From: an uncultured Gammaproteobacteria bacterium
Lineage (GTDB): Bacteria > Patescibacteriota > Microgenomatia > CAZTEW01
DNA length: 63,937 bases
Direction: 5' to 3'
Assembly: GCA_964612215.1 (NCBI GenBank)
Contig: CAZTEW010000002.1
Coordinates: 1 to 63,937 of the forward strand
The translations under genes were made by a program, and so were the position numbers. Shown piece after piece: positions 108 through 48,036 of this stretch (positions are counted from its first letter, which is position 1; every line of letters starts with the position of its first letter). Below the pieces are notes generated by a model. The model saw only the letters and a program-made list of their open reading frames with translations, did not search any database and was not told where the DNA came from.

Positions 108-1754
108 ATGGTAGAAAAATATGATAAATTCATCACTAAAGCCAAGACACCTCCGAGGTGGCCGAATGCCTGCCCGCCAGGGCTTTCGGCCGCAGGCCAT
201 GGCAGGCGGGGACTCCTCGGAGGTGGAATTAACAGAAATCACCTCTTTCTTCTCGCGTTTTTAGTCATCGCGGTTTATTTTAACTCCCTGAAAAATGATT
301 TTGTTTCTGATGACATTACTGCCATTGTCCAAAATGAAAACATTGGCAATTTTGGTTATTATTTGCCGCACCACTCGCTCAATTTTCTCCGTTATTTCTT
401 TTATGCTTTAAGCTATCACCTAGCTGGCTTGAATCCTCTAGTCTTCCGATTAATTAATAATCTTCTTTTCCATTTCGGGTCAGTCTTGGTGATTTATTAT
501 TTAATTAATTTCTTCTATGAACCTTTTTTAGCTTTAATTGTCAGCTCGGTTTTTGCTGTTCACCCGATTTTAAGCGAAACCGTGGTTTGGATTTCCGGCG
601 GCGTTCACAGCCAGTATGCTTTTTTTCTTTTTCTCGCTTTGCTCCTTTATTTGCGCAAAAAGCAATTTTGGGCGGTGATTAGTTTTCTTTTGGCTTTATT
701 TACCACTGAAAAGGCAATTATTTTTCCTTTAATTCTTTTAAGTTTTGAGTTTTCTTTCGGCCGGCTGAAAAAGAATTGGCAGCGGCTAATACCCTTCTTT
801 TGCTTAAGCGCTTTCTGGGGAACCGCTATTCTTTCGGCTGGGATTTTAGGCCAAAGAATGGGCGCGCTTCAGTCGCAATTCTACCAGCAACAAGGCTTTT
901 ATAATCCTCTGATTCAAATTCCCACGGCCATCAGCTCTTATTTACAGTTAATTTTCTGGCCAATAAAATTGACTCTTTACCATTCGGAAACAGTCTTTTC
1001 TCAAACCGAATACTTGTTGATGCTCGCCGTCACGCTGGCTTTTTTCTGTCTTGGGTTGTTCTGGCTTTTCAAGAGGTCTCAACGACCTTCTTTCTTCTGG
1101 CTCAGTTTTTTCTTTATTGGTTTGCTACCAATGCTCGCGCCTTTGAAAATCGCCTGGGTAGTCGCCGAACGCTATGTTTATTTCAGCTCACTGGGCATTT
1201 TTGTTCTGGTTGGTCTAGCAATTCAAGGATTCTTTAAATACACCTCCGAGGTGGCCCGCCGGCTGGCGGGGACTCCTCGGAGGTGGAGTCAATATGCGCT
1301 TCTCGCCATTATCCTCATCCTTCTTTCTGTTCGGACAATCATTAGAAATCAGGACTGGCAAAACCAAGACACTCTTTGGCTGTCAGCCGCCAGAACTTCA
1401 CCTTCCAGCCCGCAGAATCATAATAATTTAGGCGATCTCTATGGCCGGCAGGGCAATTACCAGCGAGCCATCGCCGAATTTAAAAAAGCCATTGAACTGC
1501 AGCCTAATTATGCTGATGCCTATCACAATCTTGCCAACACTTACACCCAGATTGGTGAAATGGATTTGGCAATTAGCTATTATCAAAAAGCGCTGGAATT
1601 TAATCCTCAACTCTGGCAATCGCATCAAAACCTAGCGGCGATTTACTATCAGCAAGGTAAAATCGAACTAGCCAGACAAGAATTAGAAAAAGCCGCGGCA
1701 ATTAATCCAGAAAACGCTAATATCCAGCAAGCGCTTGAACTCCTAACACCTTAA
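108..1754 (+). CDS. TPR-repeat polytopic membrane protein, TMTC/PMT_2-like GT-C glycosyltransferase
   Basis: 548-aa ORF with many hydrophobic segments. Acidic first-loop motif NDFVSDD. C-terminal TPR repeats (YGRQGNYQRAIAEFKKAIELQPNYADAYHNLANTY...). Contains two in-frame palindromic elements. Confidence 0.8.
   Translation: MVEKYDKFITKAKTPPRWPNACPPGLSAAGHGRRGLLGGGINRNHLFLLAFLVIAVYFNSLKNDFVSDDITAIVQNENIGNFGYYLPHHSLNFLRYFFYALSYHLAGLNPLVFRLINNLLFHFGSVLVIYYLINFFYEPFLALIVSSVFAVHPILSETVVWISGGVHSQYAFFLFLALLLYLRKKQFWAVISFLLALFTTEKAIIFPLILLSFEFSFGRLKKNWQRLIPFFCLSAFWGTAILSAGILGQRMGALQSQFYQQQGFYNPLIQIPTAISSYLQLIFWPIKLTLYHSETVFSQTEYLLMLAVTLAFFCLGLFWLFKRSQRPSFFWLSFFFIGLLPMLAPLKIAWVVAERYVYFSSLGIFVLVGLAIQGFFKYTSEVARRLAGTPRRWSQYALLAIILILLSVRTIIRNQDWQNQDTLWLSAARTSPSSPQNHNNLGDLYGRQGNYQRAIAEFKKAIELQPNYADAYHNLANTYTQIGEMDLAISYYQKALEFNPQLWQSHQNLAAIYYQQGKIELARQELEKAAAINPENANIQQALELLTP
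148..226. repeat. Type-1 palindromic element (long 79-nt form), in frame in the N-terminus of the TPR/GT-C gene
   Basis: Outer arms CACCTCCGAGGTGG (148-161) and CTCCTCGGAGGTGG (213-226) flank a GC-rich, partly self-complementary core. Translated as TPPRW...GLLGGG. Confidence 0.8.
1241..1286. repeat. Type-1 palindromic element (46 nt), in frame
   Basis: CACCTCCGAGGTGG-CCCGCCggctGGCGGG-gaCTCCTCGGAGGTGG. Translated as TSEVARRLAGTPRRW. Confidence 0.85.
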
Positions 1755-1806: not shown

Positions 1807-2484
1807 TTATTCTTCTAATAAAAGGTGTTTTATCTCTTCAAGTCTTCTCTGATAATCAGCTTGATCAAAAATAAATTTTTTATAAGACAGAATATCATCA
1901 ACATCATCAAAAATAATCTCTTTACTACAAATCTCTATTTGTGACTTACCCAAATATTCTGGAAAAGAGGAATAAGGATAATTTTTCAGTTCTTTAAAAG
2001 ATTTGACCACATAAGAAGAATATGGATTAAGATGAATATATCTTGAAACATGAAGAAGTTGTGCAGCTGTTTCGATCCTGACAGCCTTGAATTTACCTTG
2101 AAATAAAGGACCGATTCTTTTATTTTTAAAATTAAAATACCGAGTATAGCTATTGGTAAAATTACTCATAAACTTAGAAATGCCATTATCAATTTTTTGC
2201 TTCAAAATTAAATGAAAATGATTGGGCATAAAACAAAAAGCAATGATTTCAGCTAAAAATTCTTTTGCTTCGGTTAATTCTTCCCGAATTTCCATTCTTT
2301 TTTTTTGAGAAATAACTATAAATTGAGCATATCGTAAAGGAAAGTTTTCATTCTGATAATATCTTAATGTTTCGATGGCCCGACTAAAGTCTCTTTTAGT
2401 TTTAAAGGTGGGTTGAGAAGCAACGCCTCTGTTTAAGACGTGATAAAAATTATCAGTAATAAGCGGTATTTTTCTACCTGGCAT
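1807..2484 (-). CDS. IS200/IS605-type Y1 (HUH) transposase, RAYT-like
   Basis: 225 aa. HUH motif in MPNHFHLILK. Catalytic-Tyr region HVSRYIHLNPY. N-terminal YHVLNRG is typical of the Y1_Tnp/COG1943 family. Confidence 0.8.
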   Translation of the reverse strand: MPGRKIPLITDNFYHVLNRGVASQPTFKTKRDFSRAIETLRYYQNENFPLRYAQFIVISQKKRMEIREELTEAKEFLAEIIAFCFMPNHFHLILKQKIDNGISKFMSNFTNSYTRYFNFKNKRIGPLFQGKFKAVRIETAAQLLHVSRYIHLNPYSSYVVKSFKELKNYPYSSFPEYLGKSQIEICSKEIIFDDVDDILSYKKFIFDQADYQRRLEEIKHLLLEE

Positions 2485-4616: not shown

Positions 4617-5604
4617 AGACTTTAATGGTTTCCTCGGCTGTTTTTTGCCAAGTGAATTTTTTCGCCTGATTAATGCCTTTGGCTGATAATTTTTTCCTGA
4701 GCTGGGTGTCTTTCATTAATTTCTCAATTGCTCCCGCCAGCTGGCGGGGATCAACCATCATCGCCGCCTGACCACAAATCTCTGGCAAGCTCGCTACCGC
4801 CGACGCCACCACTGGTGTACCGCAAGCCATCGCCTCTAAAACTGGCAAACCAAAGCCCTCATAAAAAGACGGCTGAACATAAATCGTTGCTAAGTTATAA
4901 ATCTCCACTAATTCTTGGCTGCTCACCCAGCCTAAGATCTTCACTTTTTCTTTTAAACCAAGCCTTTCGATTAATCGAAGAATCACCTTCGCTTCAGGTA
5001 CCTTGGTTTTTTTCAAGGCCCGGCTGACGAAAACTAAATTGGTTTTTGTTTTGGCAACCGCCCGCAACAAACCATCGACATTTTTATTCCAATTCACGTC
5101 GCCGACGTAGAGAACAAAACGCTCGGGGAGGTTATGTTTTTCTTTAATTGGTAATTTTTTGAATTCTTTTGCGGGCGCCAGATAAACAACGTGGATTTTC
5201 TTTGCCGGAACATGAAGATATGTAATAATATCTTCTTTAGAACTTTCTGAATCAGTAATAATTGCGGCGGTGTTGCGCAGAGAGAGTTCTTGAAGTTGAA
5301 GCTTTACTTCACCCTTAATCCCCCGGGGAAAATGCTGGGGAAAAACCAAAGGAATCACGTCATGAATCGTGACTACTGCCGGCTTTGGTTTTTTAAAAGG
5401 CAAAGTCGGAAAAAAAAGATCAAAATAAGGATAGTGAATCAGGTCAGCGTCAACTGGCAAAGGCCCTTGTTTAATTACCTGAAAAGAAAAGTCTTTTTTT
5501 TTGATTCGCTGCAGTCCGGCTAACAACTGCTCGACATAGACACCCATGCCCCGGCCGCTGTGGGCTGAACTGAATTTTCTCAAGTCAAAGACAACCTTCA
5601 TCAC
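4600..5604 (-). CDS. GT4-family (GT-B, group 1) glycosyltransferase
   Basis: 334 aa. Classical EGFGLPVLEAMACGTPVVAS motif. Confidence 0.85.
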   Translation of the reverse strand: MMKVVFDLRKFSSAHSGRGMGVYVEQLLAGLQRIKKKDFSFQVIKQGPLPVDADLIHYPYFDLFFPTLPFKKPKPAVVTIHDVIPLVFPQHFPRGIKGEVKLQLQELSLRNTAAIITDSESSKEDIITYLHVPAKKIHVVYLAPAKEFKKLPIKEKHNLPERFVLYVGDVNWNKNVDGLLRAVAKTKTNLVFVSRALKKTKVPEAKVILRLIERLGLKEKVKILGWVSSQELVEIYNLATIYVQPSFYEGFGLPVLEAMACGTPVVASAVASLPEICGQAAMMVDPRQLAGAIEKLMKDTQLRKKLSAKGINQAKKFTWQKTAEETIKVYEKVV

Positions 5605-7211
5605 TTGTTTTTAAATAGTAGCAGAACCAACAGCAAAAAACTAATTAATGACAGGCCGTCGCTAAATAAGCGCAGCGGCGTTTCGGTAAAGTTCACCCTG
5701 ATCTTACCTTCTCCTTGAACCGCAGCAATACTAAAAGCGCCGTCTGGTTCGATTTCAAGCAGCTGCTTCTGACCATTCCAGCCAGAGGCTGGTCCGCCTT
5801 TGGTGGAAACCAAAACTTGCCAGCCAGGATAATAATTGATATTAAACCGCAGGCGGTTATTTTCTTGAAACTCAGTTTTTGGTTCTGCTGGTTGATCATG
5901 GTTAGCCCAAATCGTCTGAAAACTGTTGCCTAAAGTCGCTGTCCCCTGAGTCCAGTCCGGATTATTTAAATAAAAACCATTATCTCGAGCCGGATAAATA
6001 ACCGGCCGGCTGTAACGCCAATTACAGAGTAAGACGGCTGCCAACAAAGCCAAGGTCAACCAACGCTTCTTCAGTTTCCCAACCAACCATCCGGCCAGAA
6101 AGCTGGTGATCAGCATCATCAGTGACAACAGCCGCCAGGGATATTGAAGATAGGCCAACCAGGGGAAAAAACGCCAGAGCGGCAAAGAAATTTCCAGCAT
6201 TAAAAAAACTAGAAAAATAAACCAAGTCAAGAAAAAGACCGGCTTACTGGAGAGAATTTTTTGCCGCCAGATGACTACCAGGCTCGTCAGCACCACCAAC
6301 CAATGAACCAAACCGACCTGAAATGACATCCCGTCCATAATGCCGCTGACGGAAAAACCATTCCCCCAGGAAGGAAAGACCAGTTGGAAAAAGGCCGGAA
6401 AGTGGTCGCTATAGTTAATCAGCTCTAGCCCGCGGACGAATCTTTTTTCGACCAAGGCCGGCAGCCAAAAATAGGCGCTTAACCCCAAACCAAGAATTAA
6501 AGACACTCCGGACAGCCACTCCTCGGACGGTGGCAGGCTGAATCCGCCAGCTGGCGGAGAAAGCCATGACTCCTCCGAGGTGGGGCGGCAAAAAACTAAA
6601 TAGCTCACTAAAAATACACTGAAAATCATAGCGAGAATATTGTGAGAAAGAATGAGTAAAGCAAAAAATAAGCCCGCTAGTGCTAACCGGCGCTTCTCCC
6701 AAGCCCAAAGAATCGCTGCTAACCAAACCAAAGCCCAGGCTTCGCCGACCGAACCACGAATGTAAGCATCAACAAAATGATAGGGCGCGTAAAGATAGAA
6801 AACAGCGCCAACTAAGGCTGGCCAGGAACCGAAAAGTTCTTTTAACCAAAGATAAAAAAACAGGGTTGACAAAATTAAGGTTAAAGCCAGGCTGAACTTG
6901 AAAGAATCGGCCAGACTGGCACCCAAAAGCAGAAAAATTTCCGCTCCGTAGTTCGGCAACGGATAGAAAAAATTAAAAAGCGGCGCGCCAAAACCATGAT
7001 CTAAATCCGGCGCCCAGCGGGAAAAGGGTCGGCCGCTGCGAAAATTCTTGTCAAACTGCCAAAAACGGATTAGGTGATACTCGCCATCGTGAGTCGGTAT
7101 AAAACCGGCCCGCCATAAGGGCCAGCTCGCCAGAACCACCAATAGCCCCAGAATTAACCATGGCCAGTATTTTTTCATTGTAAAGCAATAATGCCTAAAT
7201 AATGAATCCAA
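5601..7211 (-). CDS. Family A polytopic membrane protein, putative GT-C glycosyltransferase (PTPS-related/COG5617-like by recollection)
   Basis: 536 aa. THDGEYHLIRF, YFWLPAL and YYPGWQVLV motifs, plus a C-terminal TM anchor. The likely true start is ATG at 7178, which forms an ATGA overlap with the upstream stop. Confidence 0.7.
   Translation of the reverse strand: MDSLFRHYCFTMKKYWPWLILGLLVVLASWPLWRAGFIPTHDGEYHLIRFWQFDKNFRSGRPFSRWAPDLDHGFGAPLFNFFYPLPNYGAEIFLLLGASLADSFKFSLALTLILSTLFFYLWLKELFGSWPALVGAVFYLYAPYHFVDAYIRGSVGEAWALVWLAAILWAWEKRRLALAGLFFALLILSHNILAMIFSVFLVSYLVFCRPTSEESWLSPPAGGFSLPPSEEWLSGVSLILGLGLSAYFWLPALVEKRFVRGLELINYSDHFPAFFQLVFPSWGNGFSVSGIMDGMSFQVGLVHWLVVLTSLVVIWRQKILSSKPVFFLTWFIFLVFLMLEISLPLWRFFPWLAYLQYPWRLLSLMMLITSFLAGWLVGKLKKRWLTLALLAAVLLCNWRYSRPVIYPARDNGFYLNNPDWTQGTATLGNSFQTIWANHDQPAEPKTEFQENNRLRFNINYYPGWQVLVSTKGGPASGWNGQKQLLEIEPDGAFSIAAVQGEGKIRVNFTETPLRLFSDGLSLISFLLLVLLLFKNK
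5782..5806. repeat. Type-3 palindromic micro-insertion (KGGPASGW cassette)
   Basis: CCAGAGGCTGGTCCGCCTTTGGTGG. Encodes STKGGPASGW directly after the YYPGWQVLV motif. Confidence 0.8.
6519..6583. repeat. Type-1 palindromic element (65-nt variant) in frame
   Basis: CTCCTCGGAcGGTGG (6519-6533) ... TCCGCCAGCTGGCGGA (6543-6558) ... CTCCTCCGAGGTGG (6570-6583). Translated as PTSEESWLSPPAGGFSLPPSEEW. Confidence 0.75.
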
Positions 7212-13332: not shown

Positions 13333-14164
13333 TTTTCAATTCCCAGAATTTAAGATAAGCACTCGCCTCAAGCAAGCCGGAAAACAAAGCAAAAATAAAG
13401 CCTAAAAAGCCGTCTAAAAATCCTTTATTGACAAAATAAACCTTGAGAAAGGTCTGCATCGGGACGATCAGTAAATAGCGAAAGCTGTTAAAAAAATTCG
13501 GAGTCAGAGAAGAACGCCAGTGCTCTTGGGCGCGGAGCGAAGAATAAGTATTAAACTTTTTAAGATATTCAGAAAAAGTCGGAAAAGGATAATGGAGTAA
13601 ATGACCCTTTAAATAACCGGTTTTGCCTTTTCCGCCAGAGGCGGATCCGCCTTTGGCGGAGACGACCATCTGTTCATGAACTGATTTGCAGGGCAAATAT
13701 GCTTGGCCGCGTTTTAAGAGGCGGATAACCGCATCCGGATACTGGCCGCCTTTTTTCAACCACCGGCCCAGAAAAAAATTCTTTCGGGGCAGATAATAGG
13801 CCGCTGGCGCGTCCTTTTGCCATGTCCGGCCGGCAATTTCCCTAATTTCTTGAGCCAGTTGCTGATCAACCACTTCATCCGCATCCAACTGGAGAATCCA
13901 ATCGCCTTTGGCCTGATCAATCGCTATTTGTTTATTGATGTGAAAAATGGGTTTATTGGTCGTCACGATAACCTTGGCGCCGTATTTTTTAGCCACTTTG
14001 ACGGTCTGGTCAATTGATTGGCCATCAACCACAATAATCTCATCCGCCAGCTGGCGGACCGCCTCCAAACACGCACCGAGGTTTTTTTCCTCATTAAAGG
14101 TTGCGAGAACAACGCTAATTTTAGATTTCATTTCTTTTGGCGCTTCACGAAAACTTCTTTGCAA
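13316..14164 (-). CDS. GT2-family glycosyltransferase (paralogue of 38591 and 40903)
   Basis: ISVVLATFNEEKNL, IIVVDGQSIDQT and LDADE motifs. The likely start is ATG at 14131, which forms an ATGA overlap with the small upstream ORF. Confidence 0.8.
   Translation of the reverse strand: MQRSFREAPKEMKSKISVVLATFNEEKNLGACLEAVRQLADEIIVVDGQSIDQTVKVAKKYGAKVIVTTNKPIFHINKQIAIDQAKGDWILQLDADEVVDQQLAQEIREIAGRTWQKDAPAAYYLPRKNFFLGRWLKKGGQYPDAVIRLLKRGQAYLPCKSVHEQMVVSAKGGSASGGKGKTGYLKGHLLHYPFPTFSEYLKKFNTYSSLRAQEHWRSSLTPNFFNSFRYLLIVPMQTFLKVYFVNKGFLDGFLGFIFALFSGLLEASAYLKFWELKNAKKK
13632..13660. repeat. Type-3 palindromic micro-insertion in a GT2 gene
   Basis: CCGCCAGAGGCGGATCCGCCTTTGGCGGA. Encodes SAKGGSASGG, which is absent from the two GT2 paralogues at the same position. 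Confidence 0.8.
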
Positions 14165-14385: not shown

Positions 14386-16011
14386 TTATAATCTAAATAG
14401 TGCCAATAAGCTTATTAAGCTTCCCAGGGAAATTAAATCGGCAAACAGACGCAATCTAGTCTCTCGAAAAACAACTTCAATTTGATGTTCGCCCGCCGAT
14501 GAGGCGGGTATCCAGAAAGTCATAATTCCCCGGTAATTCGGGTCTTGAAATTCAATCTCTACTGGTTGGTTATCAACTAAGACTTTCCAGCCGGGAAAAT
14601 AAAGAGTGTTTTCCGCGATTCTCGTTTTTTCGCCTGCTTTAACCTGGTAAAGGTGGCGGTTGGTCAACCGTTTAATTTCTTTTATTTCGGCCTGGCCTTC
14701 AATCACCTCGATCGGTACCCCCGCAAACTGTTCCATAAAACGGATTGACCAGCGAGGAGAACTTTCACCGGTATCATTGGTCGTGCCCTCTGTAAACTGA
14801 GTATAAAAAGCTTCGTCCCGGTAAAGAAAGCCTTCTGGCCGATAAAAGTTTTTATTAAACCATAAAGCCAAACCCAGGAAAATCATTAAAACCACTGTCT
14901 GTTTTTTTTGGGGCAAAGAGGCAATAACAGCCCCAGCGAAAATCCCTGGCGGCAAAACCGCCAAAGAGAGAAAACGCCAGGCAAACTGGAATTTGCGGAG
15001 TAAACCGACTCGATCATAAACAAAACCAGAAGCTGGCAGAATCAGAAAGATCGCCAGCCAAAAACAGACAAACATCAGTGATAAAAACAGCCATTCTTTT
15101 TGTTTGTTTTTAAAAAACCGCCAAATCAAAAAGGGAGCGATGATTACCATCAGCCACTGTAAAATTCCCAGCTGAACGCTGAACTGACCGGTAATGCCGT
15201 AATTCCAATCAGACCAGATTAACCGAGAAAATGGTTCAAAGCCGCCGAAAAATCCTTTCATAACAATATCTCTTAAAGTGTACTTGGCTTCAAAAAAGGC
15301 CGGCACCCAGAAAAAAACCGACAGAGAAAAACCCAGAATCACGAATAATGAATTATGAATCATGAATTTAAATTTTTGAGATCGCGGCAATGTTAAAAAT
15401 AAAAAGGCGATATAGCTAAAAATCACTACCAGGAACATTAAGCTCAAAGCATTATGAGATAAAATCAAACCGGCTAAAGACAGGCTGGCAACGGCTAAAT
15501 AGCGGTATTTAAACTGCCGGCTTAATTTCAAAAGAAAGTAACAGATTAATGGCGGCCAGAGAAAAGCCGTGCATTCGCCGATGGCGCCCCGAACATAAAG
15601 GTCAACAAAACGATAAGGAGCAAACAAATAAATCAAGCCGGCGGCCCCGCCAGCTGGCGGGCCCCAAATTTCCTTAATCCAGAAATACATAAAAAGACCC
15701 GAGAGAATAAAACCCAGAACAAAAACCAGTTTGGTGCTGAAGACAAAAGAAAAACCGAGAAAGTGAAAAAATGACCCTAAATAACTGGAAAGCGGATAAA
15801 AAAACATTAAAACCGGGTGACCGTAACGCCGGTTTAAGTTGCCGGCCCAGCGGGGCACCAGATTCCCCTCGGACAACGACTGGTAAAAGCTGGCAATCCT
15901 GACCACATGATCTCTACCGTCATGAGTTAACGGCAACCCCGGCCGGAAAAAATCCAAGAGCGGTATCAAAGAAACAAGAATCAATAAAAAGAAAAGGTTT
16001 TTATTCCTCAT
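14386..16011 (-). CDS. Family A polytopic membrane protein, putative GT-C glycosyltransferase
   Basis: 541 aa. THDGRDHVVRI, FFWVPAF and LYFPGWKVLV motifs, plus a C-terminal TM anchor. Confidence 0.7.
   Translation of the reverse strand: MRNKNLFFLLILVSLIPLLDFFRPGLPLTHDGRDHVVRIASFYQSLSEGNLVPRWAGNLNRRYGHPVLMFFYPLSSYLGSFFHFLGFSFVFSTKLVFVLGFILSGLFMYFWIKEIWGPPAGGAAGLIYLFAPYRFVDLYVRGAIGECTAFLWPPLICYFLLKLSRQFKYRYLAVASLSLAGLILSHNALSLMFLVVIFSYIAFLFLTLPRSQKFKFMIHNSLFVILGFSLSVFFWVPAFFEAKYTLRDIVMKGFFGGFEPFSRLIWSDWNYGITGQFSVQLGILQWLMVIIAPFLIWRFFKNKQKEWLFLSLMFVCFWLAIFLILPASGFVYDRVGLLRKFQFAWRFLSLAVLPPGIFAGAVIASLPQKKQTVVLMIFLGLALWFNKNFYRPEGFLYRDEAFYTQFTEGTTNDTGESSPRWSIRFMEQFAGVPIEVIEGQAEIKEIKRLTNRHLYQVKAGEKTRIAENTLYFPGWKVLVDNQPVEIEFQDPNYRGIMTFWIPASSAGEHQIEVVFRETRLRLFADLISLGSLISLLALFRL
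14490..14510. repeat. Type-4 GC hairpin (CCCGCC-GATGA-GGCGGG) in frame
   Basis: Encodes PASSAGEH. Paralogues lacking it read P(A/D)GEH. Confidence 0.7.
15344..15371. repeat. Imperfect period-7 repeat (AATAATG/AATTATG/AATCATG/AATTTAA) inside a CDS
   Basis: Encodes KFKFMIHNSLF just upstream of the FFWVPAF motif. Confidence 0.7.
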
Positions 16012-17660
16012 TAAATTTCTCCGACGACAATCGCTGGTTCACCATCTAGAAAATAAACTGTTTTTTGCGGCTGAAAACTTTCCGGAAAGTCCTGGGGTCG
16101 GCCGACGTAGAGAATGGCCTGATTTTTTTCTTCTGTTTCCCATTTTATCGGCCGGAAAACATACTTGCCGAAACCCTGATTTGATCCGGTTTTTTGATAA
16201 GTCAGCGGGTCGAATTGCAAATAAAACAAGAAGAAGATATAAGACTGATCCAGGTGCGGCTGGTTAGAAACAATGATTTTTTGATAATTATCTGTAATTG
16301 CCTGAATCTCGGCCACGGCCGGCTGGTAACCGTATTGCCAGGCTTGGGAATTAAAATAATTCTGCTGGACAAAATACTGGTTGAGAAAATAAACAAAATT
16401 AAAAATAAAAAATAAAAAATAAAAAACTAAAACGCCAAACTTAAAGCTTTTTTTCTTGGTTTGCAGCCACTGCCAGAATTCAATTAAACCCAAGCCAATA
16501 AAAACATAAATCATCGGCAGGAAGCGTAAGGTTCGGACCGCGTGAGGCGAACCACTGCTAAAAGCCGCTGGCACTGACGCCAAAAGAAACCAAGAAAAAA
16601 CCGTTGCTTTGACCCGACGGCTGAATTTCCCAAAAACCAACTGATAAACTCCCCAAAGTAAAAACAAAATTTCCCAAAGATAAAGCAGGCCCATGCCTGG
16701 CGCGTGATGGCGGATCTCATCGCCGGTCAGAAACAACCAGTTAAGATCGAAGTGAGCAACATAACCATTAATAAAACCCGTTAGGTAGGCAATCCTGCGA
16801 TTATCAAAAATCAAACCAAGATAATTTTTTTGCTGATAATCACGCAGTAAGCGATTGGCGCTTTTGGCTAAAAAGGGTGTTTGATCGGCCGCCAAACTCG
16901 TATCTCTAGCTCTCATGAAAATTTCCGGACTGGCAAAAATCAAATAAATGAAGGGCAACACCACCAGCAGGCCGACTATCAGACTGGCCAGCAAATAGCG
17001 CCACGGTATTTTCAGGATCTTTCGCCGCCAAATGAAAAGCATGGCCAAAACCAACAAAGGCGTGAAAACTTTTTCCGCCTGATAAACATAAATGTTCAGG
17101 CCAGCAAAGAAAGAAGCTAAAGCCAAAAACTTTGGCTGGCGCAGGCCTTTTAAAAATAACCAGACCCAAAGAATGCTAAAAAAAACGCCGATGTTAGATT
17201 CAAAAGCCACCCGAGAGAATTGCAAATGCCAAGGACTGATCGCCAATAGAAAGGCTGTTGTTAAAGGCAGTACTAACCACCTCCGAGGTGGCGCTTGACG
17301 ACTCCTCGGAGGTGAAATCTCTGAAAATATCTCTTTCACCAAAAAATAAGTCAACAAAATCGCCAATGTCCCCAGGATGGCGGCCGGCAAACGAACCGTA
17401 AAAACATTAAGCCCAAAAAGCTTTATAAAGGGGATTATTAAATACCCATAAAGAGCCGGCTTGTAGTCACCAAAAGAACGCAGGAAAAGCGGCCAAGACT
17501 GACCATGCTCGTCACGGCCGGTTCGCAATAGCGAAAAAGCATTATAACCCAAAGAGGCTTCGTCCCAATCAGGCGAGGCCGGTACCTGACCTAGCTGCCA
17601 AAAACGGAGCGTCGCTCCTAGAATCAAAATCAAAACTAACCCCAACCACCTTTTTTTCAT
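16011..17660 (-). CDS. Family C PMT/ArnT-like (GT39/GT83, PMT_2-type) membrane glycosyltransferase
   Basis: 549 aa. LRFWQLGQVPASPDWDEASLGYNAFSLLRTGRDEHG first loop with a DE motif, AISPWH motif, polytopic. Confidence 0.8.
   Translation of the reverse strand: MKKRWLGLVLILILGATLRFWQLGQVPASPDWDEASLGYNAFSLLRTGRDEHGQSWPLFLRSFGDYKPALYGYLIIPFIKLFGLNVFTVRLPAAILGTLAILLTYFLVKEIFSEISPPRSRQAPPRRWLVLPLTTAFLLAISPWHLQFSRVAFESNIGVFFSILWVWLFLKGLRQPKFLALASFFAGLNIYVYQAEKVFTPLLVLAMLFIWRRKILKIPWRYLLASLIVGLLVVLPFIYLIFASPEIFMRARDTSLAADQTPFLAKSANRLLRDYQQKNYLGLIFDNRRIAYLTGFINGYVAHFDLNWLFLTGDEIRHHAPGMGLLYLWEILFLLWGVYQLVFGKFSRRVKATVFSWFLLASVPAAFSSGSPHAVRTLRFLPMIYVFIGLGLIEFWQWLQTKKKSFKFGVLVFYFLFFIFNFVYFLNQYFVQQNYFNSQAWQYGYQPAVAEIQAITDNYQKIIVSNQPHLDQSYIFFLFYLQFDPLTYQKTGSNQGFGKYVFRPIKWETEEKNQAILYVGRPQDFPESFQPQKTVYFLDGEPAIVVGEI
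16394..16428. repeat. Period-7 A-rich repeat (AAAAATA x3 plus imperfect flanking units) inside a CDS
   Basis: caaaatt aaaaata aaaaata aaaaata aaaaact. Encodes the TM helix FYFLFFIFNFVYFL. Confidence 0.7.
17277..17314. repeat. Type-1 palindromic element (38-nt form) in frame
   Basis: CCACCTCCGAGGTGGCGCTTGACGACTCCTCGGAGGTG, identical to 20665-20702. Translated as SPPRSRQAPPRRW. Confidence 0.85.
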
Positions 17661-19339
17661 ATTTGAAAAGCCTTTAATATCGGCTCGCCATTTAAAAGTT
17701 TAAATTCCCTTTTAATATCGGCTCCAGAAGGAACATTTTCAGGTAAATCCACATAAAGCATGCCTTTTTCCCAACCAGTGTCTTTGTCAAAATGATATTT
17801 GCCAAAACTTTTCACTTTAACAAACCCCATCACCTCTCTCTCAACTTCAGCTAGCCGGCGAAATTCCTCTGGTGACCGCTTTTGATGAAAAAGTAAATAA
17901 ATATAGGGGCGGCCAAGGGCATTAGTCATCCAAATCCGATCATGTTGACCCTCAACCTCTTGAAGATAAGCCGCAACCTCACGATAACCATATTGCCATT
18001 CCCGAGAATATTCTCTGGGGTAATGAACAATATAACTATGAAGAAAATAAGTAAAATTTAAAATTACAAATGACAAATTAAAAATTAAAAATATAAATTT
18101 AAAATCTCTTTTTATCTGTCTCTTCTCCAGCCATTCTAAAAAACCAATCACGCCTAAAGCGCTGATCATTTGCCAGGTCGGCAAAGTGTTTTCAATCCGC
18201 AGGCTATGCGGCGTTTCCCGGGCCGTCGCCGCCGGCAAAATACCAACCAACAACCAGAAGGGAATTAACCACCAATAACCTGGTTTTCGTTTAAACAAAA
18301 GCAAAATACCAGCGATCAAAAAAGGCAGCTCCCAGAGATAAAGCTGGCCGACGTCCTGAATGGAGAATTTCGGATTGCCGTCGCCCCGAATAAAAAGAAA
18401 AGCCGGATTAAAATGATCAAAATAATGGCGAAGAAATTCGCGAGTATAGCCCCAGCGCCGGTTATGGATAATCTTTGACCACCAAACCAATTCGCCAGCT
18501 GGCGAATCATTCTCCATTTCTTGATTAGCCTGAATAACCACGCTTGAATCAGAAAAGATATTCACTTCGTGGAAACGCAGTTTGGCTTGGGGGGTGAGTA
18601 AAAAAGGAAGTATCGGTAATAAAAAAACAATCCCGGTTAAAGCTGCCAACACCGCCTGTTTCTTTTTCTGCCAAAGTTCTTGGCGGAAACCGACAACCAG
18701 TCCTAAAACCAGCAGCGGCGCTATTATCCGGGCCGTATTAAAAGTGTAAAGAGAGAGAGTAAAACTGATTACCGACGCCAGCAGCCAGCGGCTTGACTGG
18801 CGCATGGCTTTCAAAAAACCAAGTACGCCGGCCACTAAAAAGAAACTGGCTACATTGGCTTCAAAAGCAGCCCGGGAAAGCATGATATGCCACGGACTAA
18901 TTGCCAGCAGCAAAGCAGCAACGGCGCCAAGTAGAGATAGTCTCTCCTCGGAGGTGGCGAAGCAACGACTTCGACTCCTGCAAGGTGGGACGACATGACG
19001 GCAAAGAATCTCTTTTGCCAGCCAGTAGGTCAGCCAAACTGTTAAAACGCCAGCGAAAGCCGAGGCAAACCGGGTCGCGAACGCATTTAATCCGAAAAGC
19101 TTCACCGGTAAAATCGTCAGGTAGGCATAGACTGGCGGCTTAAAATCGCCGAAAGATTCCAAATAATTGAGAGGTAAAAATCTGCCAAACTCATCCCGAC
19201 CATCTAATCCCAGGCTGTAAGCATTGTAACCCCAGGCGGCTTCATCCCAACTTAGAGCCGGCGGATTACTGCCTAACCAACAAAAGCGCAAAGCGCTGGC
19301 CAAAACTAGAATAAAAAATAAAGCGCGGGATTTTTTCAT
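17657..19339 (-). CDS. Family C PMT/ArnT-like membrane glycosyltransferase
   Basis: 560 aa. LRFCWLGSNPPALSWDEAAWGYNAYSLGLDGRDEFG and AISPWH motifs. ATGA overlaps at both ends. Confidence 0.8.
   Translation of the reverse strand: MKKSRALFFILVLASALRFCWLGSNPPALSWDEAAWGYNAYSLGLDGRDEFGRFLPLNYLESFGDFKPPVYAYLTILPVKLFGLNAFATRFASAFAGVLTVWLTYWLAKEILCRHVVPPCRSRSRCFATSEERLSLLGAVAALLLAISPWHIMLSRAAFEANVASFFLVAGVLGFLKAMRQSSRWLLASVISFTLSLYTFNTARIIAPLLVLGLVVGFRQELWQKKKQAVLAALTGIVFLLPILPFLLTPQAKLRFHEVNIFSDSSVVIQANQEMENDSPAGELVWWSKIIHNRRWGYTREFLRHYFDHFNPAFLFIRGDGNPKFSIQDVGQLYLWELPFLIAGILLLFKRKPGYWWLIPFWLLVGILPAATARETPHSLRIENTLPTWQMISALGVIGFLEWLEKRQIKRDFKFIFLIFNLSFVILNFTYFLHSYIVHYPREYSREWQYGYREVAAYLQEVEGQHDRIWMTNALGRPYIYLLFHQKRSPEEFRRLAEVEREVMGFVKVKSFGKYHFDKDTGWEKGMLYVDLPENVPSGADIKREFKLLNGEPILKAFQI
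18061..18102. repeat. Imperfect period-7 repeat (about 6 units) inside a CDS
   Basis: aaattac aaatgac aaattaa aaattaa aaatata aatttaa. Encodes FIFLIFNLSFVILNF. Confidence 0.7.
18944..18988. repeat. Type-1 palindromic element (degenerate second arm) in frame
   Basis: CTCCTCGGAGGTGG-CGAAGcaacgaCTTCG-aCTCCTgCaAGGTGG. Translated as VPPCRSRSRCFATSEE. Confidence 0.7.
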
Positions 19340-21045
19340 GGTTGATATTCTAAAATTATAAAGGCCAGCGAATTATCCGCCCGCCTGATTTCCGCCAATT
19401 GCCGGCTGCCAGGGACTGCCCCGCCGCACAAACCGCTGTTGACATACAAAACTCCTTTTTCACCATTAACATCAGAACGACCATTCTCATCTGTGACCAA
19501 CCTCATAGGACACTCCTCTTGTAAAAACTGATACTTCCCAAAACTGATTCGATCAAAATCAGGAATTGCCGGATTTTTGGTTTCCTGCTGGAAACCCGCT
19601 GGGTCATACTGACTAAAAAACAAAAAATAGATTGTCGGGGCTGATTCGCGATCAGTGATGACTGCTTTTCGATAATCCGGCAGCAGCTGATTGACTTTTT
19701 CAACTAAAGCCTGATAGCCATCCTGACGATCCCAGGGTTGATAAAGAGGCGCGTGGATATAATATTGATGAAGATAGGCGCTAAAATTATAAAAACCAAA
19801 AAGAATAAAAACTATCACAAAAGGCAAAAAAATCCTTTTCCTTTTTAACCAGGTGACCATTTCCAGCCAACCAAAACCAGCCAACCAACAAAAAACAGGC
19901 AAAGCAATTAAAGTCCGCTGGAGATTAGGGACATCATTAAAAGTTAAGGCACTGCCAATCATCGATAAGAAAAGCCAAGCAAAAAGAAGCGTCTTGAGAT
20001 CAACATTTTTCTTAAATATCGTCCAAAGACCAATCAAAAGAAGCGGCAACTCAAAAAGATAGAACAAACCAGTCAAGGGGACTCGATAGCGATTAGGAAA
20101 ACCCTGGTCTGTAAATAAGAAATCAAAAGAAAAGTGAGCAAAGTAATTTCTTAAAAACTGGTTCAAATAACCCATCACTTTGTTATGAAATAACCGGGTA
20201 ACAATGATCGGCAAGGAAGAAACACCATCTTCTCGAATATGGCGTTCAATTAAAAGTTGGGTTTCTTGACCGCCTAAAAGACTAATTGACCGTACCCAAA
20301 GAGAAAGATTCTTGGAAAACATAAACCAAGCTGAAGGCAAAACAATCATCAGGAAGAATAAAAGCCAAACAAAAAACTTTGTTTTTCTCTCTGTCTTAAT
20401 CTTACTAAAAGATAAATAAATCAAAACTGGTAGAAAAAGAGGTAGAAAAGACCGAGCCGCTAAATAAATATATAAGTTAATTCCTATGCAAACAAAAGCA
20501 AGAAAGAGCCATAACCGACTTTTCTTTTTCAAGCCAGAAAAGTAGAGACAGACACCAAGAACAAGAAAAAAAAGAATCAAAACACTCTCAGTTGCGGTCC
20601 GAGAAAGATTAATGTGCCAAGGTGAAATCGCTAGTAGAAAACTAGAAACTAGAGGAAGCGTTAACCACCTCCGAGGTGGCGCTTGACGACTCCTCGGAGG
20701 TGAATTCTCTGGAAATATCTCTCTTGTCAAATAATAAATCGCAACCACTGTCAAAGACCCTAAAAGAGCCGCAGGAAAACGAACCGCAAATTGATTTAAG
20801 CCAAAGATTTTAATCGGAAAAATCGTGAAGTAGCTATAACCTCCTGGGCTATAAACAATAGATTGGAAATTTAAGGGTAAAAAATTAGCGTTAATATCCC
20901 GGCCGGTTTTGAGGATTGAAAATCCATTGTAACCCAAAAAGGCCTCGTCGCGATGAAAACCCAACGGCACCTGTCCCAGCTGCCAAAACCGCAGCCCCAG
21001 CGCTAAAAGCAGAATTAAAGCTAAGGCCGTGATCTCTTTTTTCAC
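19336..21045 (-). CDS. Family C PMT/ArnT-like membrane glycosyltransferase
   Basis: 569 aa. LRFWQLGQVPLGFHRDEAFLGYNGFSILKTGRDINAN and AISPWH motifs. Confidence 0.8.
   Translation of the reverse strand: MKKEITALALILLLALGLRFWQLGQVPLGFHRDEAFLGYNGFSILKTGRDINANFLPLNFQSIVYSPGGYSYFTIFPIKIFGLNQFAVRFPAALLGSLTVVAIYYLTREIFPENSPPRSRQAPPRRWLTLPLVSSFLLAISPWHINLSRTATESVLILFFLVLGVCLYFSGLKKKSRLWLFLAFVCIGINLYIYLAARSFLPLFLPVLIYLSFSKIKTERKTKFFVWLLFFLMIVLPSAWFMFSKNLSLWVRSISLLGGQETQLLIERHIREDGVSSLPIIVTRLFHNKVMGYLNQFLRNYFAHFSFDFLFTDQGFPNRYRVPLTGLFYLFELPLLLIGLWTIFKKNVDLKTLLFAWLFLSMIGSALTFNDVPNLQRTLIALPVFCWLAGFGWLEMVTWLKRKRIFLPFVIVFILFGFYNFSAYLHQYYIHAPLYQPWDRQDGYQALVEKVNQLLPDYRKAVITDRESAPTIYFLFFSQYDPAGFQQETKNPAIPDFDRISFGKYQFLQEECPMRLVTDENGRSDVNGEKGVLYVNSGLCGGAVPGSRQLAEIRRADNSLAFIILEYQP
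20665..20702. repeat. Type-1 palindromic element (38-nt form) in frame
   Basis: A 38/38 match to 17277-17314, while the flanking coding sequence of the two paralogues is visibly diverged. Confidence 0.85.
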
Positions 21046-21053
21046 CTCTCCTA

Positions 21054-21062
21054 TGATACAAT
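21054..21062 (+). promoter_or_regulatory. Extended -10 box (TGATACAAT) in the 26-nt divergent intergenic spacer
   Basis: TGnTAnAAT-like box ending 9 nt before the ATG at 21072, which implies a leaderless or near-leaderless mRNA. No clear -35 box. Confidence 0.3.
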
Positions 21063-21071
21063 ATTTAGGTC

Positions 21072-22784
21072 ATGTTTGCATTTTTTCAGCGGCGGCAAAA
21101 AATTCTCCTGGGAATGATTTTCTTCTTAGCTTTATTTCTCCGAACCTATAAATTAAGCAGTTTTCCGGTTGGGTTTCACGGTGACGAGGCCGAAATCGGC
21201 TATAATGCTTTTTCGTTACTCCAAACCGGACGCGATAAAAACAACCAATTCCTGCCGCTGGCCACTGACCAATGGGGTGATTTCCGGCCGACCGGCTATC
21301 ATTACACGGCTATTCTGCCGATCGCCATTTTTGGCTTAAACGAATTTGCCACCAGACTGCCGGCCGCTATTTTCGGCTCCTTAACGGTGATTGTTATTTA
21401 TTTTTTGGCTAAAGAACTCTTTCGCCCCCGCGGTGTAGCTACAAATCCACCGCGGGGGCGGTTAGAGGGGCGGTTAGAGCTAATTGCTACTTTCCTGTTG
21501 GCCATCAATCCCTGGCATGTCATTATCTCCCGGGCCACTTCAGAAAGCGTCATCAGTCTGTTTTGGATTATTTTAGGCGCTTATCTTTTTTTAAAAGCGA
21601 TCAAAGCCAAACAGGCAAACAGCGGCTTATTGAGCCTTGCCTATCTGTTTTTTACCCTGAGTTTTCTTTTTTACCATGCGGCCAGATTTTTTACGCCCCT
21701 GTTGGCTTTCTTTTTAACTCTTTTTTACTGCCGGCGCCAGCCAGAAAAGAGAAAGCTCTTAATTGGTCTTAATCTCCTCCTGATGGTCGCTTGCTTAGTG
21801 GTTTTTATGGCCTCAAAAGGCCGGGTGAGGCCTTTTGATATCAGTATTTTTCATCACCAGGAAACTCAACTGGTGATTAAAGAACAAATTCGCGAAGACA
21901 ATCTTCATCCTTTAATCGTGCGTTTTTTTCATAACAAGTTAATTGGTTATGGCCTAGCTTTTCTTAAAAATTATTCTCAACATTTCACTGCTGATTTTTT
22001 GTTTTTTAAAGGCGGCCTACCGGCTCGCTACCCAATTCCCTGGACAGGCAATTTTTATTTAGCCGAGGCTTGGTTAATGATTCTTGGTTTTTGTTTTTTA
22101 GTCTCCAGTGGTTTCCGGAAAAAAAATCTCGACTATCTCCTACCTATTTTCTGGACTATCATCGGTCCCTTGCCGGCCGCTTTGACCTTTGAAGATATTC
22201 CTAATCTCCAGCGCAGCAGCCTGATGCTGCCGGGATTAGTCATGATCACCGCTTACGGCTTGGTGGAATTGATGAAAGCTGTCCGGCCGGCGCGACTCAG
22301 AAAAGCAATCCTCCTTTTGCTGACCCTTGCCTTGGCTTATAATTTTGCCTTTTTTCTTCATCATTATTTTCATCATTCTTTAACTCACCAGCCGTGGCAT
22401 CGCAATTATGGTGAAAAAGAGTTGATTAGGAGCTTTCAGGAGCTTTCTCCTCAATATCAGCGGATAGTGACCACCAGTTATGACGATAATCAGCTTATCT
22501 TTTATCTCTTTTATACCCAATTTGATCCTCAAGTTTTTCAAGACTTAGGTTCGCCTAGAGATAAAAACTTTTTAACCTTCCAAAACCTGACTTATGTCTA
22601 TGACCATTGTCCTCTCAAAGGCGACGAGAAAAACGAGGCCGAAGGCGAACTGGAAGTCCTTTATGTCAATATCGGCCCCTGCCAACTGCCGAAAAACGCC
22701 GAAAAAATCAGGAGCATCCGCAGAACCGACGACACCGAGGCTTTCCAGCTTGTAAGGCTTCGTTATTTAAAAGCTAAAAATTAG
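21072..22784 (+). CDS. Family C PMT/ArnT-like membrane glycosyltransferase
   Basis: 570 aa. LRTYKLSSFPVGFHGDEAEIGYNAFSLLQTGRDKNNQ and AINPWH motifs. Divergent from the three minus-strand paralogues. Confidence 0.8.
   Translation: MFAFFQRRQKILLGMIFFLALFLRTYKLSSFPVGFHGDEAEIGYNAFSLLQTGRDKNNQFLPLATDQWGDFRPTGYHYTAILPIAIFGLNEFATRLPAAIFGSLTVIVIYFLAKELFRPRGVATNPPRGRLEGRLELIATFLLAINPWHVIISRATSESVISLFWIILGAYLFLKAIKAKQANSGLLSLAYLFFTLSFLFYHAARFFTPLLAFFLTLFYCRRQPEKRKLLIGLNLLLMVACLVVFMASKGRVRPFDISIFHHQETQLVIKEQIREDNLHPLIVRFFHNKLIGYGLAFLKNYSQHFTADFLFFKGGLPARYPIPWTGNFYLAEAWLMILGFCFLVSSGFRKKNLDYLLPIFWTIIGPLPAALTFEDIPNLQRSSLMLPGLVMITAYGLVELMKAVRPARLRKAILLLLTLALAYNFAFFLHHYFHHSLTHQPWHRNYGEKELIRSFQELSPQYQRIVTTSYDDNQLIFYLFYTQFDPQVFQDLGSPRDKNFLTFQNLTYVYDHCPLKGDEKNEAEGELEVLYVNIGPCQLPKNAEKIRSIRRTDDTEAFQLVRLRYLKAKN
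21423..21460. repeat. Type-2 hairpin element (13-bp stem) in frame
   Basis: CGCCCCCGCGGTG-tagctacaaatc-CACCGCGGGGGCG, followed by a direct duplication of GGCGGTTAGAG. Translated as RPRGVATNPPRGR. Confidence 0.8.
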
Positions 22785-48013: not shown

Positions 48014-48036
48014 ATAAAGAATAGTATACCCAAGTT

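Follow-up and report, generated by a model that had tools for sequence, protein, structure and literature searches.

Five paralogous genes for membrane glycosyltransferases, referred to here as family C, lie in a 63,937-nucleotide stretch of DNA (contig CAZTEW010000002.1; the whole stretch is called the window below) that was deposited as an uncultured Gammaproteobacteria bacterium and is placed by GTDB in the Patescibacteriota (Microgenomatia). All five carry a GC-rich palindrome between the codons for the second transmembrane helix (TM2, ending in KE[IL]F) and those for the third (TM3, with (L)LAISPWH); four of the palindromes are strong and one is decayed. The hairpins are dispersed repeats and not a feature of the glycosyltransferase family. 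They are inserted into the loop between the two helices, occur as copies in unrelated genes and genomes, are translated in frame, and recur at this loop, and one of the two types found, type 1, has its stem in common with hairpins that flank a Y1 transposase gene in the same window. We consider it probable, though well short of certain, that they are selfish palindromes resembling repetitive extragenic palindromes (REPs) and Rickettsia palindromic elements (RPEs), filtered by a permissive cytoplasmic loop and additionally spread by gene conversion between paralogs.

Five family C genes carry a palindrome in the same loop

An earlier reading of the window from its letters alone (the original prediction) had named five open reading frames (ORFs), all of which are present. 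Paralogs 1 to 3 occupy 16011–17660, 17657–19339, and 19336–21045 on the minus strand, paralogs 4 and 5 occupy 21072–22784 and 52255–53865 on the plus strand, and each is designated below by its first coordinate. The proteins are 31 to 38% identical to one another and all five score above the Pfam cutoff for PMT_2 (paralogs 2 to 5 are assigned by ORF, alignment, and PMT_2 match; paralog 1 by ORF, Pfam, structure model, and Foldseek). In all but one of them the best PMT_2 match ends at the insert. A PDB sequence search with the family C profile gave no match, and the fold was therefore predicted instead. The AlphaFold (AF2) model of the 16011 protein has a mean pLDDT of 84.8, and Foldseek matched it to AglB (7e9s), ArnT (5f15/5ezm), OST, and PMT with E values of 7.6e-8 to 3.5e-7 and query TM-scores of 0.52 to 0.56. 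The invariant acidic motif of family C, D33/E34, lies in the first external loop, and the host genes thus combine the PMT_2 match, the fold, and the acidic motif that mark GT-C enzymes (GT39/GT83-like). The established topology of GT-C enzymes places the N terminus in the cytoplasm and the catalytic acidic motif on the outer face, in the first external loop. With D33/E34 in that position, the loop that holds the insert, which joins TM2 to TM3, should therefore be the first on the cytoplasmic side, a placement derived from the fold match. The inserted residues of the 16011 model (116–127) have pLDDT values below 50 and separate helices 86–111 and 130–140.

The palindromes lie in the same loop of all five paralogs, as had been predicted, and were folded as RNA with 10-nt flanks and compared with 200 dinucleotide shuffles each. 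The 16011 element, type 1a (17274–17316, minus strand, 43 nt, encoding SPPRSRQAPPRRW), pairs two 13-nt mini-hairpins, CACCT-CCG/CGG-AGGTG, as an inverted doublet whose stem measures 11 bp; its hairpin at 17278–17314 folds with −25.7 kcal/mol (z = −4.2). The type-1a element of 19336 (20662–20704, minus strand) is identical at 43 of 43 positions, and its hairpin at 20666–20702, of the same sequence, gave −24.8 kcal/mol (z = −4.4). The two remaining strong hairpins were also as predicted, both being of type 2. That of 21072, type 2a (21423–21478, plus strand), consists of a hairpin at 21423–21460 with a 13-bp stem (−36.0 kcal/mol, z = −5.5) and a 12-nt tandem duplication (GGGGCGGTTAGA, twice) at 21455–21478. 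That of 52255, type 2b (52581–52625, plus strand), has a 16-bp stem, with its hairpin at 52582–52621 (−43.5 kcal/mol, z = −8.3), and is identical at 45 of 45 positions to a copy at 54337–54381. Conceptual translation across the inserts gives peptides such as EIFSEISPPRSR and ELFRPRGVATNPPR. The exact duplication in 21072 reads GRLEGRLE and runs from the 3′ end of the type-2a hairpin into the neighboring flank.

The fifth element, in 17657 (type 1b, 18935–19000, minus strand, encoding VPPCRSRSRCFATSEE), is degenerate. Its palindrome at 18944–18991 folds with −20.4 kcal/mol (z = −1.6), and 14 of the 200 shuffles fold equally well, so that alone it is not significant; the other four have z = −4.2 to −8.3. 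The original prediction had taken it for a degenerate copy of the short, 38-nt type-1 form. It is indeed a decayed type 1, but it shares the extended flanks ATGTCGTCCCACC…GGAGAGACTAYC with a longer type-1b copy at 41490–41557 and therefore comes from another variant than the 16011 and 19336 element.

The identity of the 16011 and 19336 elements stands out from diverged surroundings, as had been claimed. The exact shared tract measures 43 nt (17274–17316 and 20662–20704) against a whole-gene identity of 51% (824 of 1611 nt). Approximately 18 nt of 5′ flank are also nearly identical (16 of 18), and 58 matches, counted from aligned codons, fall in a 60-nt stretch around the tract. The best gap-free 39-nt window elsewhere in the pair reaches 77% in a scan that skipped windows spanning the element, where the alignment has gaps. 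Furthermore, the 5′ flank of the 19336 copy and the downstream LTLPLVSSFLLAISPWH are nearer to the 16011 orthogroup than to the gene's own ortholog. The 43-nt tract and its similar 5′ flank, seen against 51% gene identity, suggest that the 19336 element was probably copied from 16011 by gene conversion.

A mosaic pattern was observed in comparison with a locus from another genome, L120 (L-numbers denote such loci throughout). The ends of 19336, the 21072 gene, and the gene at 22774 are 86 to 89% identical in nucleotides between the window and L120, whereas the central ~1 kb of 19336 including the loop (19698–20728 against L120 368–1392) cannot be aligned as DNA, with 64% amino acid identity overall. 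This mosaic divergence suggests that an internal segment of 19336 was replaced through recombination.

The elements are insertions into a short loop

We measured loop length from the F of KELF to the F of FLLAIS in 199 family members from 113 sources. An alignment of homologs had been proposed as the way to define the ancestral length, and it gives a most frequent value of 10 residues (56 members), a second mode of 14 (41 members), and a range up to 65, compared with 16 to 30 residues in the five paralogs of the window. In the 16011 orthogroup, the helix that follows KELF begins after about three residues in short-loop homologs, and roughly 45% of the members have longer and highly diverse sequence exactly at this point. 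Among 118 orthologs of 16011, the loop is the sole internal position at which at least six extra residues are found in at least three sequences. Nearly all of 120 orthologs of 21072 have a minimal loop; in the alignment of 120 sequences, six, counting the gene of the window, carry an insert of at least six residues.

Each paralog has orthologs that lack the insert. For 21072, the protein P0121 from L120 is an 83%-identical ortholog with the minimal loop KELWENHRLAVLATFF; the DNA of the two loci is 86 to 89% identical over alignable segments, and the alignment breaks exactly at the type-2a element. The empty site carries a mini-palindrome, CACCGGCTGGCGGTG, and has GGCGGT in common with the type-2 end. 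This GGCGGT lies opposite the duplication at 21455–21478, and microhomology or slippage at insertion is therefore possible. The ortholog of 19336 in L034 has no element, and in that of the closer L120 the loop is taken up by another palindrome (GATCCCGGATCG…CGATCCGGGATC, which encodes FSDPGSERTYDPGS). Orthologs of 17657 in L034, L035, and L039 have an empty loop, and the one in L043 holds a type-1 copy of its own, read in another frame (HLRGVHLATSEE). The 16011 element is found at the same site and in the same frame in orthologs from L115, L034, L118, L119, and L116 (57 to 65% nucleotide identity), with stem changes that preserve pairing, and is absent from L113 and L114, which are as distant as the bearers; the bearers are scattered across a neighbor-joining tree.

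Because orthologs of each paralog lack the insert, the insertions post-date the duplications that produced the paralogs. A single insert in the ancestor of the paralogs was rejected for the same reason. Comparison of orthologs thus shows the elements to be separate in-frame insertions into a loop that was ancestrally short.

The elements belong to dispersed repeat families

The window holds eight type-1 copies (starting at 148, 1241, 6500, 17278, 18944, 20666, 41500, and 45883) and three of type 2 (21423, 52582, and 54338). All 11 lie in frame within ORFs of 310 to 569 codons, in nine different genes of at least five families, and are free of stop codons in the frame used. Identical copies of 43 to 46 nt occur in unrelated genes, namely at 52581 and 54337 and at 41500 and 45883. 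The first of these pairs is the 45-nt type-2b element of 52255–53865 (plus strand), which recurs at 54337–54381 in the unrelated membrane-protein gene 53774–55471 (minus strand); the two genes read it from opposite strands, and the second translates it as NRPRSGFVAPLRGR in a loop between hydrophobic helices.

The arms of type 1 are 13-nt odd palindromes, CACCT-CCG-AGGTG on one side and CACCT-CGG-AGGTG on the other, around a variable interior that is often itself a hairpin. Element lengths range from 36 to 78 nt. None of the six frames is closed by a stop codon in type 1b or in the consensus from other genomes (CACCTCCGAGGTGGCCGAATGGACTCCTCGGAGGTG), and copies are in fact read in all six, with different peptides. 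An exact-pattern scan in which each species was represented by a single genome gave 33 loci with type 1, whose deposited titles name Curtissbacteria, Berkelbacteria, other Patescibacteria, Omnitrophota, 'uncultured Gammaproteobacteria' metagenome-assembled genomes (MAGs), and one Actinomycetota MAG. Outside the window, some copies are intergenic and others fall within long ORFs, where every frame and both orientations are represented, which indicates conservation of the DNA and not of a peptide. Doublets and three-arm arrays of type-1 arms were also found (L001, L006, L028, L030, L078, and L116). Our literature search returned the type-1 arm sequences in no relevant context and no description of in-frame palindromes in genomes of the candidate phyla radiation (CPR).

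Dispersal bears on a further explanation, that the palindromes arose in situ by local template switching or inverted duplication, or descend from one ancient and since diverged insert, with no mobile element involved. The 16011 element is common to L115, L034, L118, and L119 at one site and in one frame, as a single old insert would be, but element-bearing orthologs are scattered on the tree and every paralog has insert-free orthologs, so that the insertions post-date the duplications. There is a resemblance between the right half of type 2a and the empty site in L120, and type-1 and type-2 arms differ only by pair-preserving changes; yet local events would not account for identical 43 to 46-nt copies in unrelated genes or for the same arms in other phyla and many different genes. 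We regard an origin in situ as very improbable, the least likely of the explanations considered here. A phage origin was rejected because neither the type-1 nor the type-2 pattern was found among 2.9 million viral contigs.

The remaining type-1 copies in the window lie in other kinds of genes. Two are in a TPR membrane-protein gene, 108–1754: one at 148–225 (plus strand), with a long nested interior, falls in the N-terminal tail, and one at 1241–1285 (plus strand) falls in an inter-helix loop (…GFFK|YTSEVARRLAGTPRRW|…). A decayed composite copy at 6500–6590 (minus strand) carries a nested TCCGCC-AGCT-GGCGGA hairpin and lies in ORF 5601–7211, in the loop after the SHN helix. The type-1b copy at 41490–41557 (minus strand) interrupts the GT2 domain of gene 40903–41835 after profile position 95, and that at 45881–45927 (minus strand) lies in the PTPS_related GT-C-like gene 44901–46514, in the same loop as the copies of 5601–7211 and L078.

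Every type-1 and type-2 copy in the window has one orientation on the plus strand regardless of the strand of its host gene, and GC skew is negative throughout the window. Such uniformity would fit single-strand, replication-coupled insertion. Among 37 copies in other loci, orientation is not linked to local GC skew (20 of 37), and a general link to replication was therefore rejected.

A third repeat type was noticed, a 30-nt palindrome (TCCGCC-AAA/AGA-GGCGGA|TCCGCC-TTT-GGCGGA) at 13631–13660 and 53987–54016. It is likewise an inverted doublet of a triloop mini-hairpin and reads SAKGGSASGG or SAKGGSAFGR in two unrelated genes; the single unit TCCGCC-AGCT-GGCGGA is the one nested in the type-1 copy, at 6543. 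The type-1 left arm and loop, GAGGTGGCCGAATGG (for example L001 199–232), resemble the 5′ acceptor and D-arm of class-II tRNAs, perhaps by chance. A tRNA origin of type 1 was rejected, as ARAGORN found no tRNA at any element and the tRNA-Leu of a type-1-bearing genome matches loosely. Several Omnitrophota copies are followed by a conserved GCGAAGCANGGTTA (L008 6376–6390, L013 6966–6980, and L016 3540–3554). Two others (L012 239–271 and L023 3247–3279) lie 12 to 13 nt upstream of the ATG of homologous genes (MKFFKNRTFLI… and MKLFKNKTFLA…), where the GGAGGTG arm could double as a ribosome-binding site or mask one.

Stem pairing is preserved, but most homologs lack a hairpin

Types 1 and 2 had been proposed to be two unrelated hairpin families, a division that now appears questionable. 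When the arms are aligned, type 1 and type 2 agree at most stem positions, and each difference is two-sided with the pair kept. Among unbiased copies, six of 13 stem pairs have changed on both sides and none on one side only. In the whole alignment 91.6% of cells are paired, compared with 42 to 60% in slid controls, a measure inflated by selection because the alignment was assembled by hand from sequences picked as hairpins. The two-sided changes therefore point to maintained pairing, as expected if propagation needs the hairpin. Type 2 is a second hairpin family, possibly related to type 1.

Maintained pairing could also reflect selection for a nucleic-acid structure at this position, with repeats recruited to supply it. 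The structure might serve as a translational pause after TM2 for membrane insertion, as an RNA processing site, or as an attenuator, all of which the original prediction had raised. A hairpin is present in all five paralogs of this genome, but one of the five has decayed (z = −1.6) and most family members are hairpin-free, with a GC-rich stem of at least 9 bp in the loop of only about 4% of members outside the window. The rarity of inserts among the 120 orthologs of 21072 and the hairpin-free 83%-identical ortholog argue in the same direction. The arms hold CACCTCC and GGAGGTG, which are like anti-Shine-Dalgarno and Shine-Dalgarno sequences, yet type 2 has no such arm, and the uniform orientation on the plus strand means that the RNA loop differs between host genes. 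In favor of a selected structure, stem changes are all two-sided, and from the window to L115 the element has diverged less than the gene around it. Against it, these repeats are also found in soluble GT2 domains, N-terminal tails, and intergenic DNA. No U-tail or other terminator-like signal was found above background: a terminator scan classed none of the main hairpins as terminator-like and gave counts equal to those of shuffled sequence. An intrinsic terminator or attenuator was rejected on these grounds, as no U-run follows the hairpins. Rfam gave no match in the window, and at 10 type-1 loci it gave only one tmRNA and one tRNA, away from the elements. Selection for an RNA or DNA structure at the loop is thus not supported by these data, and we hold it to be very improbable.

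A Y1 transposase gene is flanked by hairpins with the type-1 stem

The only mobile-element gene annotated in the window, 1807–2484 (minus strand), encodes a 225-residue Y1 HUH tyrosine transposase that is IS200/RAYT-like (RAYT, REP-associated tyrosine transposase). It matches Pfam Y1_Tnp with 41.5 bits (cutoff 23), and no NCBIfam IS200-family model matched at E ≤ 0.01. The HUH histidines H89 and H91 and the tyrosine Y149 are invariant in 14 homologs, and alignment to the Escherichia coli TnpA-REP protein (4er8) is weak (E = 0.26). On one side of the gene, 1757–1800 holds the hairpin ACACCT-TAG-AGGTGT (core 1762–1774) followed by the 12-mer ACACCTTGGGTA; on the other, 2511–2553 holds the inverted 12-mer, TACCCAAGGTGT, followed by AACACCT-TAG-AGGTGTT (core 2537–2549).

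The CACCT-CTA-AGGTG hairpin is present on both sides of the Y1 gene in the window and also in L122 and L125, two loci of other Microgenomates where homologs of 63 to 68% identity lie in other neighborhoods (between rpsG and cinA and between mraZ and def, respectively); in L122 it takes the form CCACCT-CTA-AGGTGG. The pattern CACCTNNNAGGTG occurs 69 times in 1.17 Mb of compared sequence, with a chance expectation of about one by rough estimate, and all but two occurrences are type-1 arms or Y1 flanks. Since the type-1 arm has the stem of the Y1-flank hairpin, type 1 can be described as an inverted doublet of a Y1-type hairpin, sometimes extended to a three-arm array, and in this structure it therefore resembles a REPIN. 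From this likeness we infer that the Y1 enzyme family, or a relative of it, may mobilize type 1.

Insertions recur at this loop and at others

Type-1 elements in the TM2–TM3 loop are read in frames that give SPPR, HLRG, or TSEV, and they start zero to four codons after the F of KELF. In L117, two paralogs have type 1 in the loop in different frames. Other occupants include a further doublet of type-1 architecture in L105 (CACTC-CCG-GAGTG … CACTC-CGG-GAGTG) and unrelated palindromes in L081, L051, and L120. Microsatellites of 7 nt, (AATTTTC)n and (GGAAATT)n, fill the loop in L043 (5991–7680), L065 (5994–7674), L045 (5955–7647), and L116 (6174–7941); they are read through as FSIFNFQFSI or LEIGNWKLEI, so that their copy number must stay compatible with the frame. 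In L090, a different dispersed repeat occupies the KELF loop of two adjacent paralogs and is also found elsewhere in that cluster. It consists of units of ~34 nt (GACANNAGACAATGAGCAGSGGAC) and inverted copies, lying in frame in several genes of a glycosylation cluster from an unrelated genome (4430–4600, 5400–5560, 6330–6510, 10550–10690, 11490–11640, and 12100–12170). In 760 kb of related loci, type 1 occurs in four places, three of which are the TM2–TM3 loop; the fourth is in L078.

Two further recurrent sites were noted. In a PTPS_related GT-C-like family (SHN…helix|loop|helix…FWxPA), one loop is occupied in 5601–7211, in 44901–46514, and in L078 (11018–11054), in differing frames, and is empty in the paralog 14386–16011. 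In the GT2 catalytic domain, a loop between …P.L..E and GY.(L/M)PR.N holds type 1 in 40903–41835, in L002 (2731–2764), and in L033 (3269–3302), that is, in the window and in MAGs labeled Gammaproteobacteria, in opposite orientations.

Recurrence in unrelated DNA contexts, by unrelated types of sequence that include products of slippage, argues for tolerance of the protein rather than recognition of a target, and tolerance is what we infer as the cause. The competing explanation is site-targeted insertion, in which an element or enzyme recognizes local DNA sequence or structure and the hot spot is mechanistic and not a survival filter. Possible targets are the T-rich end of the TM2 coding region and remnants of older elements, which could act as landing pads through microhomology or homologous recombination. 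IS200/IS605-type enzymes are known to be target-specific, nested elements exist, and loops of 14 residues (NSPxAxRN…), such as TCACCCTCGG in L114, have the look of leftovers from earlier elements. The empty L120 site has its mini-palindrome and GGCGGT. All five paralogs are occupied, this loop accounts for three of the four type-1 places in 760 kb of related loci, and the occupant differs between such close relatives as the window and L120. A common target is nevertheless difficult to reconcile with insertion points that vary by zero to four codons in three frames and both orientations, or with the 33 copies elsewhere, which have no common flank motif. Microsatellites and unrelated palindromes, for which no common targeting mechanism would be expected, build up in the same loop, and the recurrent loops of other protein families have unrelated DNA sequence. 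We therefore judge targeting to be unlikely, although it deserves more weight than the alternatives discussed above.

The insertion hot spot proposed in the original prediction is supported by these observations and is wider than was claimed, given the short ancestral loop, the empty orthologs, the use of three frames, and the variety of occupants. It is best read as a uniquely permissive site acted on additionally by gene conversion, no specific target motif having been found.

Genomic setting

The window as a whole (1–63937) is a single 64-kb glycosylation super-cluster in which almost all genes are on the minus strand with overlapping stop and start codons. It encodes at least 12 GT2 or GT4 proteins, eight PMT_2-like, five YfhO-like, and four PTPS_related-like membrane proteins, and two GT87-like proteins, together with a flippase-like Polysacc_synt_3 protein, a GDP-mannose dehydratase and epimerase, and sugar-nucleotide enzymes. 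The more distant PMT_2-like ORFs 46511–48319, 55452–56996, and 5601–7211 have no element at the TM2–TM3 loop.

Comparison with known palindromic repeats

REPs and REPINs associated with RAYT genes (REPtrons) and terminal inverted repeat (TIR) elements associated with TIRYT genes (TIRtrons) have been described together, including intragenic REPs (Di Nocera et al. 2013, PMC3733652). REPs inside coding regions encode 20 to 30 residues and are a minority, and different REPs occupy about the same site of recB in two Xanthomonas species (PMC3733652). The elements described here are like REPs and REPINs in being short (about 13 to 45 nt), GC-rich, palindromic, and dispersed in many copies (eight of type 1 in the window alone), and in occurring as singles, as inverted doublets forming long hairpins, and as three-arm clusters. 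A partial likeness is that a Y1 HUH transposase gene has on either side a hairpin with the type-1 stem, though with a different triloop. The elements differ in that no GTAG/CGTC tag stands at a fixed end: GTAG lies 3 to 4 nt upstream of two copies only (41493 and 45876), CGTC/GACG is found only inside some loops, and neither is in the consensus from other genomes. The units are also much shorter, with a 5 to 6-bp stem and a triloop; all 11 window copies are intragenic rather than extragenic; the 225-residue Y1 protein scores below the RAYT equivalog cutoff; the loops of its two flank hairpins are in direct orientation; and the host belongs to the Patescibacteria (Microgenomates group), with the same arms in Omnitrophota MAGs.

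The passages of PMC10969869 that concern RPEs (Ogata et al. 2000) describe elements of about 100 to 150 bp with a conserved peptide per family. As portrayed there, RPEs resemble the present elements as selfish palindromes lying in frame in many unrelated genes of a compact genome and adding peptides compatible with the fold. Here, nine host genes of at least five families carry in-frame copies, and the modeled insert is a disordered loop. Unlike RPEs, the elements measure 36 to 78 nt, use any of six frames, and have no conserved peptide; moreover, no transposase is tied to RPEs, whereas a candidate Y1 gene with matching hairpins lies in the same window. In function, the elements are like REP and RPE selfish palindromes, yet they depart from those groups in tag, extragenic copies, RAYT score, and RPE length and peptide.

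The Y1 locus itself resembles IS200/IS605 elements in its HUH transposase, in having a subterminal hairpin on each side of the gene, the two loops being on one strand, and in the lack of an evident target duplication. It differs in that the protein is larger than a typical IS200 TnpA, and type 1 is an inverted doublet rather than a left end joined to a right end. Classical miniature inverted-repeat transposable elements (DDE type, with TIRs and a target-site duplication) differ in that the elements here have no such duplication. The 'byp' hairpins of yeast mitochondria, like bacteriophage T4 gene 60, are subject to translational bypass; they are short GC-rich coding hairpins in an AT-rich genome, as are the elements here, but ribosomes skip byps and the frame need not hold. 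At least 11 copies here keep the frame and are free of stops, which makes straight-through translation the simple reading.

A proposed origin and its implications

The favored account, of selfish palindromes filtered by a permissive loop, can be put together as follows. The Y1 enzyme family or a relative would move type 1 as single-stranded DNA hairpins. With almost no intergenic space available, a copy can therefore persist only if it is in frame, stop-free, and harmless with 12 to 20 extra residues. The short cytoplasmic TM2–TM3 loop would be such a tolerant place in GT-C enzymes, where successive insertions may accumulate, decay, and be replaced, and gene conversion between neighboring paralogs could then have carried the 16011 element to 19336.

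Several observations weigh against this account. With regard to the enzyme, the sole NCBIfam match of the Y1 protein, to REP-associated tyrosine transposase (E = 4.5e-13), reaches 49.3 bits, below the cutoff of 80. Its flank hairpins have the same 5 to 6-bp stem as type-1 arms but a different triloop (CTA versus CCG/CGG), and their loops are in direct, not inverted, orientation, only the adjacent 12-mer being inverted. A tblastn search of 1.09 Mb, including the 33 type-1 loci (~8 kb each), found no Y1 homolog beyond the window's own; no transposition has been observed; and no connection has emerged between type 2 and the Y1 hairpin. With regard to the elements, neither a target-site motif nor a flanking direct repeat was found in the 33 copies of other genomes or in the window copies, the 12-nt duplication at 21455–21478 lying on one side of the type-2a element only. 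The alignment that suggests maintained pairing is hand-made from sequences selected for forming hairpins. In addition, the window and L115 elements are identical at 35 of 39 nt, whereas identity over the whole gene is 64% and falls to 44% at third codon positions, a difference that could reflect either constraint on the hairpin for mobility or recent homogenization among copies. Finally, occupancy of five loops out of five has a probability of approximately 1e-3 under equal tolerance (our estimate, from 13 elements and ~45 genes). Tolerance alone would leave part of this occupancy unexplained, and site preference is therefore kept as the main rival.

A more specific proposal, which we offer as tentative and rather doubtful, is that these repeats form a coding-compatible REPIN-like family of ultra-small, gene-dense Patescibacteria and Omnitrophota. 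Such a family would be open in six frames and encode linkers rich in Pro, Arg, Gly, and Ser, would be built from a 13-nt mini-hairpin recognized by a RAYT-like Y1 transposase peculiar to the lineage, would be mostly intragenic and cross phyla, and would prefer DNA for the short cytoplasmic loops of GT-C proteins.

Taken together, the interpretation given in the original prediction is partly supported, and no new regulatory principle for membrane-protein synthesis is revealed. For annotation, the elements inflate apparent protein divergence, break profile matches, and probably fragment assemblies, and recurrent peptide motifs such as HLRGG…, TSEV…, and PPRR… could pass for conserved domains. 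The locus at 1757–2553 offers a candidate enzyme–substrate pair, comprising the 225-residue Y1 protein, the CACCT-CTA-AGGTG flank hairpin, and the CACCT-CSG-AGGTG dispersed repeat, and through it the question of how intragenic palindromes are mobilized, which was not settled in the case of Rickettsia RPEs, can be addressed in vitro. If the favored account is true, selfish DNA of the REP/RAYT type is not restricted to intergenic space and persists by being translatable, and its recurrent insertions mark the few protein sites that tolerate extra residues. If the coding-compatible REPIN-like family is real as well, it would be a standing source of loop-length variation in the cell-surface glycosylation machinery.

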